Below, piece by piece: positions 1-5,344 of a stretch of 5,344 nt of DNA. The notes below the pieces were generated by a model, which was not told the origin of the DNA, made no database searches, and saw only the letters and a program-made list of their open reading frames with translations. Each line of letters begins with the position of its first letter. Positions within the stretch are counted from its first letter, which is position 1. The position numbers and the translations under genes are program-made. Origin of the DNA: a virus (lineage: Duplodnaviria; Heunggongvirae; Uroviricota; Caudoviricetes); the IMG/VR virus record IMGVR_UViG_2541047812_000002, positions 1-5,344 of that record. One strand, given 5' to 3'.

Positions 1-73
1 TTTAACCAGGGCGGGTATCGCTCGGTTTCGGGTATAACCTTAGGAAATTTTTTCCCACCTGTAAAGCACTTTT

Positions 74-105
74 TATATAAATCTATAATTATATATTTAT
101 AGATT
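74..105. repeat. Iteron cluster A: four tandem 8-bp AT-rich units (TATATAAA TCTATAAT TATATATT TATAGATT), related to the clusters flanking the par genes
   Basis: Read directly from sequence. 8-bp periodicity with units starting TATA/TCTA. Contains TTATATAAATCTATA (74-88), the exact reverse complement of TATAGATTTATATAA found in clusters B and D. Outer arms AAATCTATAA / TTATAGATTT form a 10-bp inverted repeat. Confidence 0.6.
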
Positions 106-156
106 TTCGATGTTCCCGATATCTACACACCATCAAAACAGCTCAAAATGACACTT

Positions 157-534
157 TTACTCTCTTCGCTTTTTCAAATAGTCGACAACATACGCCCTGG
201 CTTTTGCCAGCTTCCGGCGATACTGTCTGAGACTAAGAGAAAGGGCGTGGGCTTTATCAATATGCGGTGCATTTATGTCGAGGCCCCGAATCTCCCACGC
301 CCCGTATTCAATTCGGACAACCAGCGCCGCAGTCTCATCAACTACCGTGAGGGCCGTCACCGCTCCCTCGATACTGGTTTCCAGTGAGTCATTTGGTGCG
401 CCGCCCCCTCCGGTAAACTGGCAGCGCGTAACCATCATCATTTCTAACATCGACGCGAAACCGCTACGGGCGTTGCAGCCATTGCGCACCCACAGCGCCC
501 ATAGCTCAAACAAGCTATCCAGATCGCGTCTCAC
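157..534 (-). CDS. Putative phage antitermination protein Q-like (short QuuD-type family)
   Basis: 125-aa ORF, last gene of the coupled minus-strand operon (3-nt gap to the upstream gene). N-terminal LFELWALWVRNG motif and helix-rich C-terminus (LSLSLRQYRRKLAKARAYVVDYL) resemble my recollection of the Phage_antitermQ family. Position at the distal end of a cro-led operon fits. Assigned from memory, not a search. Confidence 0.4.
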   Translation of the reverse strand: MRRDLDSLFELWALWVRNGCNARSGFASMLEMMMVTRCQFTGGGGAPNDSLETSIEGAVTALTVVDETAALVVRIEYGAWEIRGLDINAPHIDKAHALSLSLRQYRRKLAKARAYVVDYLKKRRE

Positions 535-537
535 TGT

Positions 538-870
538 TCAGATCTCCCGTATCGTGACGGGATAAAGCGCCTCTACCTGCTTTTTCTTCATGATGTAGAC
601 GTCTGTTCGCACACCTTTAGTGTCGACACAATCAATCGTCCCATCGTCATAAAACACCATGAAATCAAGTTTATAAACGACACCACCTGGCAGATGAAAA
701 GGCACCTGCATAAGAAACGTCACAACGCGGCCAGCTTTTCTCAGTAGCTTCAGTTCGCAGTAGTAATCAGCCTCTTTTTTGCTATCAAAAGAGATATCAT
801 CGACAACAGTTTTTTTATTGCCGTATTTGCTTTTCCTGGTCGCTGGTTTGCGAAAGCCGGTATATCTCAT
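538..870 (-). CDS. DUF1064-family phage protein (putative nuclease/resolvase-like)
   Basis: 110-aa translation contains KYGNKKTVVDDISFDSKKEADYYCELKLLRKAG ... YKLDFMVFYDDGTIDCVDTKGVRTDVYIMKKK ... IREI, matching the conserved pattern I recall for DUF1064 proteins (KYGNKKT..DG..FDSKKEA..Y.EL.LL.KAG ... DF.Y ... DVKG..T..Y..KKK). Start overlaps the upstream gene stop by 4 nt (ATGA). Confidence 0.65.
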   Translation of the reverse strand: MRYTGFRKPATRKSKYGNKKTVVDDISFDSKKEADYYCELKLLRKAGRVVTFLMQVPFHLPGGVVYKLDFMVFYDDGTIDCVDTKGVRTDVYIMKKKQVEALYPVTIREI

Positions 871-1271
871 TTGGTATCCCCTGGTACTTCACCAAGACTA
901 AGATCAAACCCAATTTCGTCTTTAACTGACTGCGGCAACAGCTCCCACGTCTGCGCACACAAAAATTCATCGGTGCCATAACGCTCAACAAAGCGAGCAC
1001 AATTACTCAGGGGAGGGTGACGAACGGCAATATGCGGAGGCACGCGCCCACCACCAGGCACAACACCGCGATGATGTGGTGCGCACAACCCAAAGCTATG
1101 GAAGTGGCAATTCTCATCAACGCTGCCGTAATCAGGATCGTGATGTAGCTCCGTCCACAGCTCTGGATTCTCAATTTCACGGCCATCAATAATGCAAGCT
1201 ATGCAACCCACGTGAGTGAGCACCGCTTGTATATAAAGTTTCTCTTTCTTCGTTGGTGTACGTCCGTTCAT
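867..1271 (-). CDS. Cys/His-rich hypothetical protein, possible Zn-binding phage nuclease-like protein
   Basis: 134-aa ORF in the coupled operon. Contains CIAC, HHD, CHFHSFGLC and HH clusters suggestive of metal binding. AAGGGG Shine-Dalgarno about 5 nt upstream of the ATG. Family not confidently recognised. Confidence 0.5.
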   Translation of the reverse strand: MNGRTPTKKEKLYIQAVLTHVGCIACIIDGREIENPELWTELHHDPDYGSVDENCHFHSFGLCAPHHRGVVPGGGRVPPHIAVRHPPLSNCARFVERYGTDEFLCAQTWELLPQSVKDEIGFDLSLGEVPGDTK

Positions 1272-1504
1272 CAGCGCCCCTTACCATTGATAAAGAGGTT
1301 GAACTCGTTGATTAACTGGACATACATGCTTCTGGCCGCGTAGTTCTTTGCCAGCTCTTTACGGGATGAGATCCCGCAAAACTCACGCAGAATCACAGAG
1401 GCCTCAGAACTGTTTGAAACGTTCTTCCCTGTTTTACTGGTCAGAAAGCGCCAGAATTGGGGATTCTGGCAATGCATCGCAGCACCGCGAACATAACTAC
1501 TCAT
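1271..1504 (-). CDS. Hypothetical small protein (77 aa)
   Basis: ORF in the coupled operon: its start overlaps the upstream stop (ATGA) and its stop shares one nucleotide with the downstream start (TGATG). No recognisable motif. Confidence 0.4.
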   Translation of the reverse strand: MSSYVRGAAMHCQNPQFWRFLTSKTGKNVSNSSEASVILREFCGISSRKELAKNYAARSMYVQLINEFNLFINGKGR

Positions 1505-2016
1505 TGATGGCCCCCGTCATTTCTGGTGCTTTTCACCGTGCGGCTTCTTAAAAACCTGCCATCACGAACAACAGACACTTCTCGTTTACCCAACCTCATT
1601 TCACGGCGGTAACATTCAGAAAATGCCTCGTCCGGCATCATATAAATGCGACGCTTCGCCTCCGTATCCAGAAGGGAACGGCTTGGGGTTACATATAAAA
1701 ACGACTCATCAATAGGGACAAAACCACGAGCAAGAATTGCTGGCAGAATGCCAGGAAGAACGCAGAAAACAGCTCCACGATGCAGCAACATCAGGTACTC
1801 CATGACCTCCGTTATCCCCGTGACTACTGTTACGGTGTCACGTCTGTTACGGCTGGCAACCAGTCGCTGCACACGTCCAATTTTCTGATCTACAGATAGA
1901 TGTTTGCTATCGTTATCAATATGATCGATAGCAAATCCTTTAATCGTTTGATCAAGGTAGTGCACCACCTTCGATTGAATCTGGTGATTATCACCAAAGA
2001 AGGCCAGAATCATCAT
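1501..2016 (-). CDS. Hypothetical protein (171 aa), second gene of the early operon
   Basis: Long ORF whose ATG overlaps the stop of the cro-like gene (ATGATGA). GGGAGG and GAGGA Shine-Dalgarno candidates upstream. No family recognised from the sequence alone. Confidence 0.55.
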   Translation of the reverse strand: MMILAFFGDNHQIQSKVVHYLDQTIKGFAIDHIDNDSKHLSVDQKIGRVQRLVASRNRRDTVTVVTGITEVMEYLMLLHRGAVFCVLPGILPAILARGFVPIDESFLYVTPSRSLLDTEAKRRIYMMPDEAFSECYRREMRLGKREVSVVRDGRFLRSRTVKSTRNDGGHQ

Positions 2017-2507
2017 TCCTCAAGCCTCCCAAGTGCTGAACGCCGGGCGTTGCTAATCTCCTTATGAATCAGCTCGATATCGCTGGAATCTTTATTCTTA
2101 AGCTCCAGCACGGTAATCGCATCACGAACCTCTGAAACGGTTACGTGTGAGTGTTTCCAGCGAGCAATGAATCGCGGACCGCGTAGATTGCAACGCTCCG
2201 CAGGCATCCCCAACTCAGAGAAAACCGCTTTCAGCCTTGATAAGCAGTTAACAGGGAGATTCCCTTTGATCTTGTTCTGCCGAACCGATGTGCCATCGCT
2301 ACGCTGGCGCTGACGTTCGGCAAAATCTGCCGCCCATTGCTGGACGTTAATCCGGCCTTCCGAATACGCCACCAGCAGCGTCAGGTTATCCGCACGAGGG
2401 AATCTCTCGAAGCGATACCAGGCACCAATCAGTGATGACGTAAAGCCAAACTTTCTGGCAACACCAATTTGGCCTCCATTTTCGTCAACCCACTCCTGAA
2501 AGGTCAT
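2013..2507 (-). CDS. Cro/CII-like HTH DNA-binding protein with about 100-aa C-terminal extension
   Basis: 164-aa ORF transcribed divergently from the repressor gene. N-terminus (QIGVARKFGFTSSLIGAWYRF) has the pattern of Cro/YdaS-type HTH proteins. GGAG Shine-Dalgarno 8 nt upstream of the ATG. Promoter and operators lie immediately upstream. Confidence 0.55.
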   Translation of the reverse strand: MTFQEWVDENGGQIGVARKFGFTSSLIGAWYRFERFPRADNLTLLVAYSEGRINVQQWAADFAERQRQRSDGTSVRQNKIKGNLPVNCLSRLKAVFSELGMPAERCNLRGPRFIARWKHSHVTVSEVRDAITVLELKNKDSSDIELIHKEISNARRSALGRLEE

Positions 2508-2526
2508 TTAACGAACTCCAGTTAAA

Positions 2527-2541
2527 ACCACGATATGTGGT
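2527..2541. promoter_or_regulatory. Operator-like palindrome O1 (ACCAC-GATAT-GTGGT)
   Basis: Perfect 5-bp inverted arms ACCAC/GTGGT with a 5-bp spacer. Lies just downstream of the -10 of the putative cro-like promoter, on the minus strand. Confidence 0.5.
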
Positions 2542-2570
2542 ATTAAAACCACATATCGTGAGTTTTTCAA
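2542..2570 (-). promoter_or_regulatory. Putative sigma70 promoter of the cro-like/early operon
   Basis: On the minus strand: -35 TTGAAA (2565-2570), 17-bp spacer, -10 TTTAAT (2542-2547). A T10 tract (A10 on the plus strand, 2576-2585) lies just upstream and could act as a UP element. Operator O2 fills the spacer. Confidence 0.45.
2548..2562. promoter_or_regulatory. Operator-like palindrome O2 (ACCAC-ATATC-GTGAG)
   Basis: Same ACCAC-N5-GTG(G) architecture as O1, with one imperfect arm. Its core is the reverse complement of the O1 core. Occupies 15 of the 17 spacer positions between the -35 and -10 of the putative cro-like promoter. Confidence 0.5.
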
Positions 2571-2628
2571 TGGGCAAAAAAAAAATAACCTTCTATTTGT
2601 GGTCCACCTCTCGTCTTACCATGTGAAA

Positions 2629-2643
2629 ACCACTAAATGTGGT
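2629..2643. promoter_or_regulatory. Operator-like palindrome O3 (ACCAC-TAAAT-GTGGT)
   Basis: Third copy of ACCAC-N5-GTGGT. Sits 5 bp upstream of a TATAAA -10-like hexamer (2648-2653, with TG at 2646-2647) about 28 bp ahead of the repressor ATG. Confidence 0.45.
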
Positions 2644-2680
2644 AATGTATAAATAACCCACCATTCACGATTGATGAGAC

Positions 2681-3337
2681 ATGAAAAGCAACGACGAGAA
2701 CATCAAGAAAGAAATAGGTCTGCGCATTCAGACTCTACGGAAACAATCCGGCATGACTGCCGGAGATCTCCAGCAAGTCACTGGAATAGGCTTAAGCACC
2801 TTGCAGAACTATGAGGCCGGATTAAGACAACCATCTATACCTGCCATCAAGAAAATCGCGCACGCCCTGAAAGCATCAGCGCCTTATATCGCGTGCTTAA
2901 CAGATAACCCGTTCCCACCCCAGAATACTAACGCTCCTGTTATTCCTGGGCTTGTAGCTATAAAAAATGACATAGCATCGCACGCCGGAGAAAAGCCAGT
3001 GCTGGCGATAGAACAGGAGATTCTACGAAGCAAGAACATCAACCCATCGTCTCTGTCAGTTCTCCAGAGCAACGATGAGTTAATGTCACCAACAATATCC
3101 CCTGGCTCCCAAGTCCTGATTGATACAGACGATACAGAGATTCATGAGGGGATCTATGCCCTTGAAGACAGAAATGGCCTGGTTGTTTTGAGGCACTGTA
3201 GAGTCATACCGGGTGACAATGCTGTTATGCTGTCAACCGAAAGGGATGCTGAAATGAACACTAAGCATCTGAATAACGAGGAATTTAAGCGTTATAAAGT
3301 TCTGGGCCGCGTAGTTAGTGTTGTCAACTGGTTATGA
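2681..3337 (+). CDS. CI-like transcriptional repressor: N-terminal XRE-type HTH plus C-terminal S24 (LexA/CI)-like domain, apparently catalytically degenerate
   Basis: 218-aa ORF. Residues about 11-70 have the classic XRE HTH pattern (GMTAGDLQQVTGIGLSTLQNYEAGLRQPSIPAIKKIAHAL). The C-terminal 90 aa align to the S24 fold (LMSPTISPGSQVLIDTD ... YKVLGRVVSV), but the GDSM serine position reads DELM and the conserved lysine position is R/H. Confidence 0.7.
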   Translation: MKSNDENIKKEIGLRIQTLRKQSGMTAGDLQQVTGIGLSTLQNYEAGLRQPSIPAIKKIAHALKASAPYIACLTDNPFPPQNTNAPVIPGLVAIKNDIASHAGEKPVLAIEQEILRSKNINPSSLSVLQSNDELMSPTISPGSQVLIDTDDTEIHEGIYALEDRNGLVVLRHCRVIPGDNAVMLSTERDAEMNTKHLNNEEFKRYKVLGRVVSVVNWL

Positions 3338-3379
3338 TACACAGCACGGCGAAAGCCGTGCATTTCTACGCTCAAAAAA

Positions 3380-3394
3380 ACCACATTTTGTGGT
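3380..3394. promoter_or_regulatory. Operator-like palindrome O4 (ACCAC-ATTTT-GTGGT)
   Basis: Fourth copy of the motif, within the longer palindrome AAAACCACATTTTGTGGTTTT, between the repressor stop and the next gene. A TTGACA hexamer follows at 3395-3400, and AGAGG (3419-3423) precedes the ATG at 3430. Confidence 0.45.
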
Positions 3395-3429
3395 TTTGAC
3401 AACATGTGAAAGTATAAAAGAGGCTACGC

Positions 3430-3804
3430 ATGGAATTACATACAGCCAATAAAAACGAAACTCTGATCACTGCTGGAATCGAAATCCAAGCGTTGAACAT
3501 AGCGATTGAGTGTATGTTATGCCAAATCATTGATAATGAGAAAGATATCGACTGGATATCATCTACCCTTCATCTTGCTTACGAGCAAAAAGCCTGCCTC
3601 AAAACAGCCTTACAATACGATGTGCCTTCTGTATCAAAGCTGTGCCAGTCATTGATGGCATATAACAGAGCTATCATTTCTGTATGCCTCATGATTCTCG
3701 ATGAGAATACCCCTCTTAGCGACCGCTCAGAAGCAGCTCTAACCCTCTCACGTAAACAGCGACAGCTAGCAAATCAACTGATATCAACGATAGCTGACCT
3801 CTGA
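3430..3804 (+). CDS. Hypothetical protein (124 aa) downstream of the repressor gene
   Basis: ORF with a good Shine-Dalgarno (AAGAGG, 6-nt spacing) and a stem-loop terminator immediately after its stop. Predicted mostly helical. No family recognised. Confidence 0.5.
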   Translation: MELHTANKNETLITAGIEIQALNIAIECMLCQIIDNEKDIDWISSTLHLAYEQKACLKTALQYDVPSVSKLCQSLMAYNRAIISVCLMILDENTPLSDRSEAALTLSRKQRQLANQLISTIADL

Positions 3805-3808
3805 CTGC

Positions 3809-3828
3809 AAGCGGGCTAACGCCCGCTT
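3809..3828 (+). terminator. Putative intrinsic terminator (stem AAGCGGGC / GCCCGCTT, loop TAAC)
   Basis: Perfect 8-bp GC-rich stem with a 4-nt loop starting 5 nt after the stop at 3804. Followed by AT-rich sequence, though not a clean T-run. Confidence 0.45.
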
Positions 3829-3859
3829 ATATGATTATAGATTTATATAATTATATAAA
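3828..3859. repeat. Iteron cluster B: four tandem 8-bp units (TATATGAT TATAGATT TATATAAT TATATAAA)
   Basis: Read directly from sequence. The 23-mer TATAGATTTATATAATTATATAA (3836-3858) recurs with one mismatch in cluster C. Confidence 0.6.
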
Positions 3860-3881
3860 ACGCTTTTCATCCGCCAAAAAG

Positions 3882-3910
3882 TTGGTTATGCTTACCTCGT
3901 TCTATAAATA
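3882..3910 (+). promoter_or_regulatory. Putative par operon promoter overlapping iteron cluster C
   Basis: -35-like TTGGTT (3882-3887) and a -10-like TATAAA/TAAATA within 3903-3910 at 15-17 bp spacing, between iteron clusters B and C, about 45 bp upstream of the parA-like start. Weak consensus match; inference only. Confidence 0.3.
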
Positions 3911-3932
3911 TAGATTTATAGAATTATATAAC
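3901..3932. repeat. Iteron cluster C: tandem 8-bp units (TCTATAAA TATAGATT TATAGAAT TATATAAC)
   Basis: Read directly from sequence. 3909-3931 (TATAGATTTATAGAATTATATAA) differs from the cluster B 23-mer at one position. Ends 23 bp before the parA-like start. Confidence 0.6.
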
Positions 3933-3954
3933 CAAACACATGGAGTCTCGACAA

Positions 3955-4608
3955 ATGACTATCTCTGTAGGTATTTTCAACGGAAAAGGCGGCGTAACCA
4001 AATCAACAATTGCCCGTGCTTTAGCAGTTGCTTATGCAAAGGCTGGCTGGAATGTATGCCTGATCGATATGGATGTGCTTAACGGAACGGTAACGCGTTG
4101 GGTACAACGCAGAATGGCCAACAATATCGAACCAGCAATCGCGGCGCAGCCGTGCGGCACACCATCACAAGTCCAGAAAATCATCGAATCAGAAGTATAC
4201 GACCTGGTTATCGTCGATGGCGGTGCCTACGCATCTGAATCAGTACCGAAGCTCTCTGAATTTCTGGATATGGTTATTTTGCCAACCAGATTCTCTACCG
4301 ATGACCTGGAAACCACCGTTAACACAGCTCACGGCATCGTTAAAAAGGGTGTACCAATCAAGAAAATTTGCATGGTGTTTTCCGGCGCGGCTGAAAACGA
4401 AGCTGACTATATTGAAGCCCAAGAGTACCTGGCTAATACGCCATACTTTGTTGTCGATAAGTACATTCCCCACAAGCCAGCTCTGAGCAAAGCTCAGGAT
4501 AAGGGCTTAAGCCTTATTGAGTGCTCATACGTTGCGCCACGCAAAAAGGCAGACGATGTTATCCAGGGGATTATCAATCAGCTTGAGGCTCTGACTACTG
4601 CCGCGTAA
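3955..4608 (+). CDS. parA: ParA/ParF-family partition ATPase (small, type Ib; deviant Walker A)
   Basis: N-terminus MTISVGIFNGKGGVTKSTIARALAVAYAKAGWNVCLIDMD carries the deviant Walker A motif KGGxxK[ST] typical of ParA/MinD ATPases. About 217 aa, the size of ParF-type proteins. I prefer the ATG at 3955 (GGAG 9 nt upstream) over the track's ATG at 3940, which has no Shine-Dalgarno. Confidence 0.85.
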   Translation: MTISVGIFNGKGGVTKSTIARALAVAYAKAGWNVCLIDMDVLNGTVTRWVQRRMANNIEPAIAAQPCGTPSQVQKIIESEVYDLVIVDGGAYASESVPKLSEFLDMVILPTRFSTDDLETTVNTAHGIVKKGVPIKKICMVFSGAAENEADYIEAQEYLANTPYFVVDKYIPHKPALSKAQDKGLSLIECSYVAPRKKADDVIQGIINQLEALTTAA

Positions 4609-4640
4609 TATATAATTATAGTTTTATAGATTTATATAAA
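4609..4640. repeat. Iteron cluster D: four tandem 8-bp units (TATATAAT TATAGTTT TATAGATT TATATAAA) filling the parA-parG spacer
   Basis: Read directly from sequence. Begins immediately after the parA-like stop (4606-4608) and ends 11 bp before the parG-like ATG. Shares TATAGATTTATATAA with cluster B. Confidence 0.6.
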
Positions 4641-4651
4641 AGGGGATACAC

Positions 4652-4900
4652 ATGGCCGCACCATCAAAACCACCGAAAAAGAACAGCAAAGGCGTACCGC
4701 CATCAATCGAACAACCGCAGGTTTTCGACCCGACTGAAACGCCGACCAGAACCAAATCAGGTGGGGCACAAATGGCGTTTAACGTCGACCCTGAATTTAA
4801 ACGCGAGTACAAAACGTTCGCCAGCTCAATGGATATGTCATTGAAAGAAGTGCTGACAAAATCTTTTGAGTTACTCAAGGCTCAATACAACCAGAAGTAA
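4652..4900 (+). CDS. ParG-like ribbon-helix-helix centromere-binding protein (82 aa)
   Basis: Immediately downstream of the ParA-like gene, with an AAGGGG Shine-Dalgarno. C-terminal 40 aa (MAFNVDPEFKREYKTFASSMDMSLKEVLTKSFELLKAQY) fits a beta-strand/helix/helix RHH pattern similar to TP228 ParG as I recall it. N-terminal 40 aa is a Pro/Lys-rich, probably disordered tail. Confidence 0.6.
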   Translation: MAAPSKPPKKNSKGVPPSIEQPQVFDPTETPTRTKSGGAQMAFNVDPEFKREYKTFASSMDMSLKEVLTKSFELLKAQYNQK

Positions 4901-4962
4901 GAGAAGGTGACGGCCTCCAGCGCCAACTGTTGGCCGTCGCGACACAACAAGGGGAATTTGTT

Positions 4963-5112
4963 ATGTCCGAGCAACAATATACACGGTTACTGAAAACTCG
5001 TCTAACCGACCTCAAACGGCTGCAAGCTGGTTGCTTATTTGCCCTGCTATCTACCAGGCCAGAATGGGTACGTGAAGCAGTTCTGAAAGGTTTAATGCGC
5101 TCCAGCGTTTAA
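4963..5112 (+). CDS. Hypothetical small protein (49 aa from the ATG at 4963; the track ORF starts at 4930)
   Basis: AAGGGGA Shine-Dalgarno 7 nt upstream of the ATG at 4963. Stop codon TAA (5110-5112) lies 9 bp before the IS terminal repeat. No motif recognised. Confidence 0.3.
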   Translation: MSEQQYTRLLKTRLTDLKRLQAGCLFALLSTRPEWVREAVLKGLMRSSV

Positions 5113-5120
5113 ATTCAACC

Positions 5121-5344
5121 GGCTTTGTTGAATAAATCGAACTTTTGCTGAGTTGAAGGATCAGATCACGCATCCTCCCGACAACACAGACCATTCCGTG
5201 GCAAAGCAAAAGTTCAGAATCACCAACTGGTCCACCTACAACAAAGCTCTCATCAACCGTGGCTCCCTCACTTTCTGGCTGGATGATGAAGCGATTCAGG
5301 CCTGGTATGAGTCGGCAACGCCTTCATCACGAGGAAGGCCCCAG
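5121..5344 (+). mobile_element. IS903-group insertion sequence (IS5 family), left end; partial, continues past the window
   Basis: 5121-5138 GGCTTTGTTGAATAAATC matches the 18-bp terminal inverted repeat of IS903 as I recall it. The following 200 bp match the known IS903 left end with a few substitutions. Confidence 0.85.
5198..5344 (+). CDS. tnp: IS903-family (IS5 family) transposase, N-terminal 49 codons (partial; GTG start; runs off the window)
   Basis: Translation from GTG 5198: VAKQKFRITNWSTYNKALINRGSLTFWLDDEAIQAWYESATPSSRGRPQ, near-identical to the IS903 transposase N-terminus as I remember it (MAKQKFKITNWSTYNKALINRGSLTFWLDDEAIQAWYESATPSSRGRPQ). Absent from the ORF track because it lacks an ATG and is truncated by the window edge. 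Confidence 0.8.
   Translation, partial: MAKQKFRITNWSTYNKALINRGSLTFWLDDEAIQAWYESATPSSRGRPQ

Follow-up and report, generated by a model that had tools for sequence, protein, structure and literature searches.

In the telomere phages N15 and PY54, according to a published description (PMC4488713), the immB switch of the plasmid prophage (cB repressor, cro, and Q) has a repressor gene that is divergent from an operon running from cro to a putative antiterminator gene. Phage P1 encodes Ref, a lytic-cycle nuclease that degrades and disturbs host DNA and is toxic to the host (PMC4713147). Cleavage by P1 Ref depends on RecA filaments (PMC3973344, PMC4330346), and without its N-terminal segment the protein neither binds DNA nor cleaves it efficiently (PMC4330346). 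The Staphylococcus phage PhiNM1 protein Gp16 is an early RecA-dependent HNH nuclease that halts host replication and on which replication of the phage DNA depends (PMC12817073), and the YbcO and DUF968 His-Me finger nucleases of lambdoid nin regions (group 7) are small, prophage-borne proteins whose genes have RusA and Q genes as neighbors (PMC5714182). Here, we analyzed an operon in a 5,344-nucleotide (nt) stretch of DNA from a virus of the class Caudoviricetes (positions 1 to 5,344 of record IMGVR_UViG_2541047812_000002), which we refer to as the window. As in immB, a repressor gene in the window is divergent from an operon that runs from a cro-like gene to a Q-like gene. The likeness noted here is one of layout, and in the window four genes, which encode a 171-amino-acid (aa) protein, a 77-aa protein, a Ref-like nuclease of 134 aa, and a DUF1064 protein, are located between the cro-like and Q-like genes. 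On balance, we favor the view that the first three of these genes are the middle of a repressor-controlled early lytic operon and that they supply a Ref-like nuclease and a core pair formed by the 171-aa and 77-aa proteins.

The 134-aa gene (867 to 1271, minus strand) is the one for which profile searches gave a family assignment. Its product matched the Pfam family RecA_dep_nuc (PF16786) with an E value of 1.6e-11 and a score of 44.7 bits (cut-off, 26.9), and residues 6 to 112 were aligned to positions 1 to 102 of the 103-position model. It also matched phrog_2321 ("Ref-like RecA filament endonuclease"; E value, 9.5e-8) and the sequence of the P1 Ref crystal structure, 3PLW (E value, 0.003), and its RefSeq name is "Ref family recombination enhancement nuclease." When P1 Ref, taken from the P1 genome, was aligned to the 134-aa protein with MAFFT, the two proteins were 32% identical, and all nine Cys and His residues in the zinc-binding His-Me finger core of P1 Ref (C96, C99, H112, H113, C122, H123, C130, H133, and H134) had equivalents in the 134-aa protein (C23, C26, H43, H44, C55, H56, C63, H66, and H67, respectively). 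Judged from its sequence, the 134-aa protein is a core-only His-Me finger (HNH) nuclease of the Ref family. An earlier note on this DNA had described the 171-aa, 77-aa, and 134-aa genes as unannotatable. That description did not hold for the 134-aa gene, which scored above the Pfam cut-off and is already annotated in public records; it did hold for the 171-aa and 77-aa genes, for which no Pfam family was found.

The 134-aa protein matched the family model over its whole length, but it differed from P1 Ref at both ends. The basic, disordered 76-residue N-terminal DNA-binding segment of P1 Ref is not present, and the 134-aa protein opens with MNGRTPT, opposite P1 Ref residues 75 to 81, where the globular domain starts. 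The 134-aa protein also has a C-terminal extension of about 25 residues and is acidic (isoelectric point [pI], 5.6). The missing segment is a trait of P1 Ref itself rather than one that defines the Pfam domain; its absence makes it less likely that the 134-aa protein works exactly like P1 Ref, but it does not count against membership in the family. The genetic contexts also differ, in that the P1 ref gene stands alone and the 134-aa gene is embedded in a cro-to-Q operon. However, both genes are under phage-repressor control, as indicated for ref by the P1 genome record, and both are part of the lytic program. The functional model that we adopted for the 134-aa gene was PhiNM1 Gp16, a protein with a catalytic Cys181 from a Gram-positive siphovirus; this is a functional analogy and did not come from a sequence comparison. 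As for the YbcO and DUF968 nucleases, the 134-aa protein scored as RecA_dep_nuc and not as YbcO or DUF968. A YbcO-type gene is located directly 3' of a 77-like domain in Ralstonia phage GP4 and in contig L030, which parallels the order of the 77-aa and Ref-like genes in the window.

Ref-family nucleases act in recombination, a type of function that nin regions carry, and the 134-aa gene lies beside the DUF1064 gene (538 to 870, minus strand). The 110-aa product of the latter gene matched Pfam DUF1064 (E value, 8.4e-19) and phrog_190 ("Holliday junction resolvase"; E value, 7.1e-38) and was 64% identical to the DUF1064 protein of Vibrio phage VPHZ6. Together, the two genes look like a nin-type recombination module. 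The earlier note had proposed that none of the three genes resembles O, P, NinB, or RusA. In agreement with this proposal, no such Pfam match was found, and the 171-aa and 77-aa proteins matched none of the replication or nin families in Pfam or PHROG (O, P, NinB, NinG/Rap, RusA, NinH, etc.). Profile searches thus placed only one of the three genes, and an assignment of all three to known replication or nin families, which the note had named as evidence against its reading, was not what we found.

Single-sequence searches of Pfam, NCBIfam, PADLOC (a library of defense and not anti-defense proteins), and PDB sequences yielded nothing significant for the 171-aa and 77-aa proteins. The 171-aa protein (1501 to 2016, minus strand) falls in PHROG 7047, whose function is unassigned. 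An exhaustive profile search of 1.84 billion representative proteins placed only 23 clusters in its family, all of them 130 to 156 aa in length; a word-indexed search for homologues recovered close relatives only, and a profile search of genome contigs yielded no confirmed locus. The structure model of the protein was confident, with a disordered C terminus of about 26 aa, and it predicted a three-layer alpha/beta fold of the nucleotide kinase type, based on fold matches in PDB and BFVD. The top fold matches were small-molecule kinases and not AAA+ loaders.

Unlike P-loop kinases such as T4 deoxynucleoside monophosphate kinase (1DEK), UMP kinase (1UKZ), and Kti12 (6QP0), to which it showed no significant sequence similarity, the 171-aa protein has no Walker A motif. 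Specifically, GxxxxGK[ST] was absent after strand 1, and no GK[ST] was found in any of 25 family members. The strand-1 loop reads FFGDNHQIQSK in the window, the consensus of the 25 members is GG(T/S)xxxQ, and the loop at the P-loop position is shortened in the model to about three residues. A Walker B motif was also absent from the family. When each of the 25 members was searched against Pfam, no recurrent family emerged, and the one weak match was to DNMK (E value, 0.28). The features that were conserved in the family were glycines at strand ends and an invariant Glu73. Because the P-loop has been lost, the modeled 171-aa protein is most likely a kinase-like alpha/beta domain without catalytic activity. 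The family profile also matched the MARF1 NYN domain (E value, 0.0023). We rejected an NYN/PIN-like nuclease as a candidate: the alignment was off by one beta-alpha unit, the DxxN strand had no counterpart, and the positions of the catalytic Asp residues were occupied by Gly or Thr.

The 77-aa protein (1271 to 1504, minus strand) is a small, basic (pI 10.0), five-helix protein that falls in PHROG 5358. No recurrent family was found when every member of the 77-aa family alignment was scanned against Pfam, and a profile built from distant phage homologues retrieved 249 77-like proteins, none of which had a name or a Pfam domain. In Ralstonia phage GP4 gp42 (L006, 2725 to 3216) and in L030 (36 to 482), the 77-like domain is fused to an unrelated N-terminal domain of about 60 residues. 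This N-terminal domain carries the motif ADGTxRVQIDIDP...FG.PGTPVALA and had no family assignment, and in both cases it is the gene directly following that encodes the YbcO-type nuclease. No fusion of a 171-like and a 77-like protein was found; the longer 77-like proteins carry the unrelated N-terminal domain. Most members of the 77-aa family are in Halomonadaceae prophages. Halomonas phage QHHSV-1 has two paralogues about 180 bp apart (L007, 2977 to 3261 and 3443 to 3703), with a DUF3310 gene before them and a RusA gene after them. In a Modicisalibacter prophage, a 77-like gene is located directly before a gene for a PyocinActivator-type late regulator.

We found that the 171-like and 77-like genes travel together in distant phages. 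In 18 of the 18 loci first collected, a 77-like gene abuts or overlaps the 3' end of a 171-like gene, and the same was true of the metagenomic contigs L031 and L032. Both genes are parts of a cassette with the order cro-like, a 188- to 192-aa protein in some cases, 171-like, 77-like in most cases, then optionally Ref, DUF1064, or small genes, and finally the Q-like gene of the 125-aa family. This cassette is located beside a divergent repressor gene in eight lineages, which cover phages of five host genera (Escherichia, Vibrio, Aliivibrio, Aeromonas, and Pseudomonas). A 77-like gene follows the 171-like gene in six of the eight: the Escherichia coli elements; a group, L018 to L022, with 41 to 48% protein identity and the same gene order; Vibrio phage VPHZ6; Aliivibrio phage H905; Aeromonas phage 3; and L031/L032, which have a minimal cro-171-77-Q form.

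These comparisons showed that the 171-aa and 77-aa genes constitute a conserved pair that belongs to the core of the cro-to-Q cassette in this lineage. We consider them core genes rather than variable accessory cargo because of their fixed position and near-universal presence; neither the patchy presence nor the variable gene content of an accessory "moron" locus was found at the operon. In addition, when the window was compared with orthologues in viral contigs L016 and L017 (protein identity, 58 to 92%), nonsynonymous differences per site (pN) were 0.06 to 0.28 in the three open reading frames (ORFs) and synonymous differences per site (pS) were saturated at 0.70 to 0.82. Profile hidden Markov models (HMMs) retrieved homologues in distant phages with E values of 1e-23 to 1e-63. 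Because pN is far below the saturated pS, the three ORFs are identified as real genes under strong purifying selection and not chance ORFs. What is new here is limited to the recognition of the conserved pair and of the pseudo-kinase character of the 171-aa protein.

The six genes of the operon are on the minus strand and appear to form one translationally coupled unit, based on the way in which they overlap. The 164-aa gene (2013 to 2507) is first, and its stop codon overlaps the start codon of the 171-aa gene at 2013 to 2016 (tcat, or ATGA on the coding strand). The junction of the 171-aa and 77-aa genes at 1501 to 1504 is also tcat (ATGA); the 77-aa and 134-aa genes overlap by 1 nt in a catca sequence (TGATG) at 1269 to 1273; and the stop codon of the 134-aa gene overlaps the start codon of the DUF1064 gene at 867 to 870 (tcat, or ATGA). 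The DUF1064 gene and the last gene of the operon, the 125-aa gene (157 to 534), are separated by 3 nt. A purine-rich element resembling a Shine-Dalgarno sequence is located 6 to 11 nt upstream of every start codon in the operon. A consensus scan of the minus strand inside the operon found no promoter-like site and only weak terminator-like hairpins, and an Rfam scan of the window found no RNA family. These findings support the earlier note, which had placed three overlapping minus-strand ORFs (2016 to 1501, 1504 to 1271, and 1271 to 867) between the Cro-like gene and the DUF1064 and Q-like genes and had proposed that they are coupled members of an early operon.

The first gene of the operon is a fusion. 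The 164-aa protein, which falls in phrog_7452 and weakly matched phrog_35 ("transcriptional repressor"; E value, 0.0023), has a Cro-like helix-turn-helix (HTH) region at about residues 1 to 70, followed by a C-terminal domain. The N-terminal region matched the products of the 69- to 81-aa first genes of VPHZ6, H905, Aeromonas phage 3, Vibrio phage K303, Pseudomonas phage PARCL1pr, and L031. Residues 97 to 161 (approximately) matched the C-terminal end of the separate 188- to 192-aa protein encoded by the second gene in VPHZ6 and PARCL1pr. We identify the 164-aa gene, based on these matches, as a Cro-like N terminus joined to a C-terminal domain that related phages encode in a second gene of its own.

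The 125-aa protein at the other end of the operon, which falls in phrog_5285, is called Q-like by position only. It weakly matched phrog_79 ("anti-termination protein Q-like"; E value, 0.091), its match to the NCBIfam PA0613 family was below the cut-off (E value, 2.5e-4; 21 bits versus a cut-off of 100), and it had no Pfam match. Homologues of the 125-aa protein end the same cassette in all eight lineages, and its place as the last gene of the early operon fits an antiterminator Q. In Vibrio phage 1.111.A (L027, 4480 to 4848), the 125-aa homologue is encoded by the first gene opposite the repressor gene, with no cro-like gene between them. This arrangement raises the question of whether the 125-aa family consists of antiterminators or primary lytic regulators.

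Upstream of the operon and on the opposite strand is the gene for a 218-aa CI/LexA-like repressor (2681 to 3337, plus strand), which matched Pfam HTH_3 (E value, 4.5e-11), Peptidase_S24 (E value, 5.7e-4), and phrog_4 ("transcriptional repressor"; E value, 1.8e-27). Operator-like palindromes of the form AAAACCAC-N5/6-GTGG (ACCAC...GTGG) are located at 2524 to 2643, within the control region that separates the operon from the divergent repressor gene, as inverted and direct repeats at 2524 to 2565 and 2622 to 2643. A further copy of AAAACCAC-N5/6-GTGG was found at 3377 to 3402, downstream of the repressor gene and ahead of a 124-aa ORF.

We identified the source of the window by comparison with plasmid and phage records. 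Positions 1 to 5120 are 100% identical to E. coli plasmid pP136-7 (NZ_CP080230.1), a circular, non-mobilizable plasmid of 48,077 bp, and 98.8% identical to Yersinia phage vB_YpM_39. A literature search found no paper naming this Yersinia phage. The pP136-7 record also encodes capsid, portal, terminase, tail, holin, and lysozyme proteins, as well as ParA, a RelE/ParE toxin pair, and a plasmid RepA initiator. The presence of phage structural genes and ParA/RepA genes on one plasmid indicates that the element is a phage-plasmid, and based on its gene content we classify it as a RepA-type E. coli phage-plasmid of about 48 kb. A 2026 preprint described a new "p-p47" family of RepA phage-plasmids of about 47 to 49 kb, found mostly in E. 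coli, unrelated to the ten established types, and distinct from N15-type phage-plasmids. According to the preprint, this family spreads bla-TEM-1 and causes heteroresistance via an increase in copy number. The window element very probably belongs to the p-p47 family: CP032086, an accession named in the preprint, carries the operon at 98.6% identity. Unlike N15, the element is circular and has RepA. Membership in the pSLy3 group was considered and dropped, as pSLy3 is an SSU5-type element. The absence of replication genes at the position where lambdoid phages carry them, which the earlier note had pointed out, needs no special explanation, since a plasmid RepA is encoded elsewhere on the element.

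The operon is widespread among such elements. Of 59 related plasmid records, 56 aligned with it over its full length, and the three-gene region was found in 71 of 5,426 complete E. coli genomes, at 74 places of which 73 were plasmids. Plasmids of E. coli ATCC 25922 (NZ_CP009073.1 and NZ_CP037450.1), a widely used quality-control strain, carry the operon at 98.3 to 98.6% identity. The 171-aa and 77-aa genes are uncharacterized core genes of a widespread, little-studied phage-plasmid lineage.

Taken together, the data suggest the following model. Departure of the CI/LexA-like repressor from the ACCAC...GTGG operators would allow a single leftward transcript to be made, and its six cistrons would be translated in series, coupled via the ATGA and TGATG overlaps. 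The 134-aa protein would most likely nick or cut RecA-bound DNA, by analogy with P1 Ref, and this cleavage would damage or arrest the host chromosome and produce recombinogenic ends. The DUF1064 junction nuclease may help process these ends, and the nin-like recombination module as a whole may help the phage-plasmid change over to lytic DNA replication. The 171-aa and 77-aa proteins, which would be made in matched amounts, may form a joint, non-enzymatic factor whose target is DNA, replication, or the lysis-lysogeny switch. We have low confidence in the proposal that the pair acts jointly in this way and is not variable anti-defense cargo. A stronger proposal is that the pair is a previously unrecognized component of a lysis-lysogeny or replication switch that is common to a broad lineage of myophages, both plasmid-like and integrative, in Escherichia, Vibrio, Aliivibrio, Aeromonas, and Pseudomonas, perhaps a commitment factor acting on the repressor, RepA copy-number control, or host RecA via a ligand-binding, non-catalytic, kinase-like domain; this proposal is speculative, and we would not expect it to be correct in this form. 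In all other respects, the locus is an ordinary phage early operon.

Several points weigh against the model. The basic N-terminal segment that P1 Ref requires is missing from the 134-aa protein, and RecA dependence of the 134-aa protein is assumed from P1 Ref. In P1 Ref, H153 is the residue needed for second-strand cleavage. Its equivalent in the 134-aa protein was not confidently placed: MAFFT set H153 opposite A92, and the alignment is unreliable here because P1 Ref has a long finger insertion in the H153 helix (PMC5714182). A conserved His of the 134-aa protein, H85 in the motif VRHP, is located seven residues before A92. The Q-like label given to the 125-aa gene comes from its position and a phrog_79 match with an E value of about 0.09. 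Two of the eight lineages, those of Vibrio phage K303 and Pseudomonas phage PARCL1pr, have no 77-like gene, and in prophages of Ralstonia, Halomonas, and Modicisalibacter there are 77-like genes but no 171-like gene; these exceptions indicate that the pair is not obligate. Neither homology nor experiment has assigned a role to either member of the 171-aa and 77-aa pair. Finally, the p-p47 preprint found that mitomycin and ciprofloxacin gave no induction.

The first alternative that we considered, and the one raised by the earlier note, is that the 171-aa and 77-aa genes, along with the Ref-like gene, are early accessory genes for anti-defense or host takeover. The three genes are early and small, and the 171-aa and 77-aa proteins belong to no known family. 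In principle, a kinase-like fold that lacks its catalytic residues could serve to sequester a nucleotide signal. Known anti-defense loci, however, are variable and patchy, whereas this operon is present in nearly all of the related plasmids, the 171-like gene is fixed between the cro-like and Q-like genes in all eight lineages, and the 77-like gene is next to it in six. Moreover, the minimal cro-171-77-Q cassette of L031 leaves little room for anything beyond core functions. On these grounds of position and distribution, we view this alternative as unlikely for the pair, which fits it poorly. The part of the proposal that concerns the Ref-like nuclease is plausible, given that the Ref-type nucleases P1 Ref and PhiNM1 Gp16 are documented host-takeover effectors (PMC4713147, PMC12817073).

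A second alternative is that the pair stands in for a replication module. In this case, the 171-aa protein would be a degenerate helicase loader or replisome accessory protein with a nucleoside triphosphatase (NTPase) fold, and it would act with the upstream organizer-like domain and be needed for the switch from plasmid mode to lytic replication. The 171-aa gene is at the O/P position, directly after cro, and its product has a fold of the P-loop NTPase type. In addition, the 188- to 192-aa protein encoded before the 171-like gene in VPHZ6 and PARCL1pr shares its C-terminal domain with the 164-aa protein, and the N terminus of the PARCL1pr protein weakly resembled Lin1244_N, a domain of phage replisome-organizer proteins. 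However, the Lin1244_N match (E value, 0.079) was below the threshold, and K303 and L031, which have no organizer-like protein, keep the 171-like gene. The 171-aa protein has neither Walker motif, its closest folds are those of small-molecule kinases, and the element encodes its own RepA. We consider this alternative quite doubtful.

The third alternative, which we also regard as quite improbable, is that the 77-aa protein supplies DNA binding to the core-only, acidic Ref-like nuclease as a detached subunit and replaces the basic N-terminal tail of P1 Ref in trans. Several observations fit this idea: the 77-aa and 134-aa genes share a 1-nt TGATG overlap, a strongly basic protein is paired with an acidic nuclease (pI 10.0 versus 5.6), and 77-like domains are found directly upstream of YbcO-group nucleases in Ralstonia phage GP4 and contig L030. 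The nuclease also starts where the P1 Ref globular domain starts, and P1 Ref without its tail does not bind DNA, with about 100-fold more protein needed (PMC4330346). On the other hand, the neighborhoods of the 77-like genes of VPHZ6, H905, Aeromonas phage 3, L031, and Modicisalibacter contain neither a Ref nor a YbcO gene, and HMM searches with E values up to 10 found no 77-like neighbor for the core-only Ref-like genes of Vibrio phages douglas 12A4 and 1F273_PE002. The 77-like gene tracks the 171-like gene and not the nuclease gene. Finally, enzymatic activity of the 171-aa protein, whether as a non-canonical nucleotide kinase or as a divergent NYN/PIN-like nuclease, is highly unlikely, since the kinase fold, the weak DNMK match of one family member, the MARF1 NYN match, and the conserved strand-end glycines and Glu73 that favor activity are countered by the lack of GK[ST], the loop of about three residues after strand 1, and an NYN alignment that is shifted by one beta-alpha unit and has Gly or Thr at the catalytic Asp positions.

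Other features of the window are located outside the operon and its control region. An AT-rich family of repeats of about 33 nt (TATAGATTTATA / TAATTATATA) was found at 74 to 106, 3828 to 3860, 3901 to 3941, and 4609 to 4649, on both sides of parA. One copy is found just past the Q-like gene, at the entrance of the late region. By analogy, the repeats look like dispersed partition (centromere) sites; in N15, sopC consists of dispersed partition sites. A ParB-type protein bound to the repeats could influence late transcription. The 82-aa ORF after parA (4652 to 4900, plus strand; phrog_6024) is at the position expected for the gene of a small ParG/ParB-type centromere-binding protein, and the 124-aa ORF after the repressor gene (3430 to 3804, plus strand) falls in phrog_7632. 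The last 225 bases of the window (5120 to 5344) are the end of an IS903-type insertion sequence and are 92 to 95% identical to the IS903 copies of phages P7 and HK022. This end was not present in any reference phage-plasmid, and their match to the window stops at 5120.

The element analyzed here is common in E. coli and is present in the reference strain ATCC 25922, which makes experiments on the phage-plasmid straightforward. The early operon is where the control of p-p47 induction and of the switch from plasmid mode to lytic growth must lie, and the presence of a Ref-type nuclease in the operon could matter for antibiotic-phage synergy, as it does for P1 Ref. Within the minimal cro-to-Q cassette, the 171-aa and 77-aa pair is the only part that has no assigned role.

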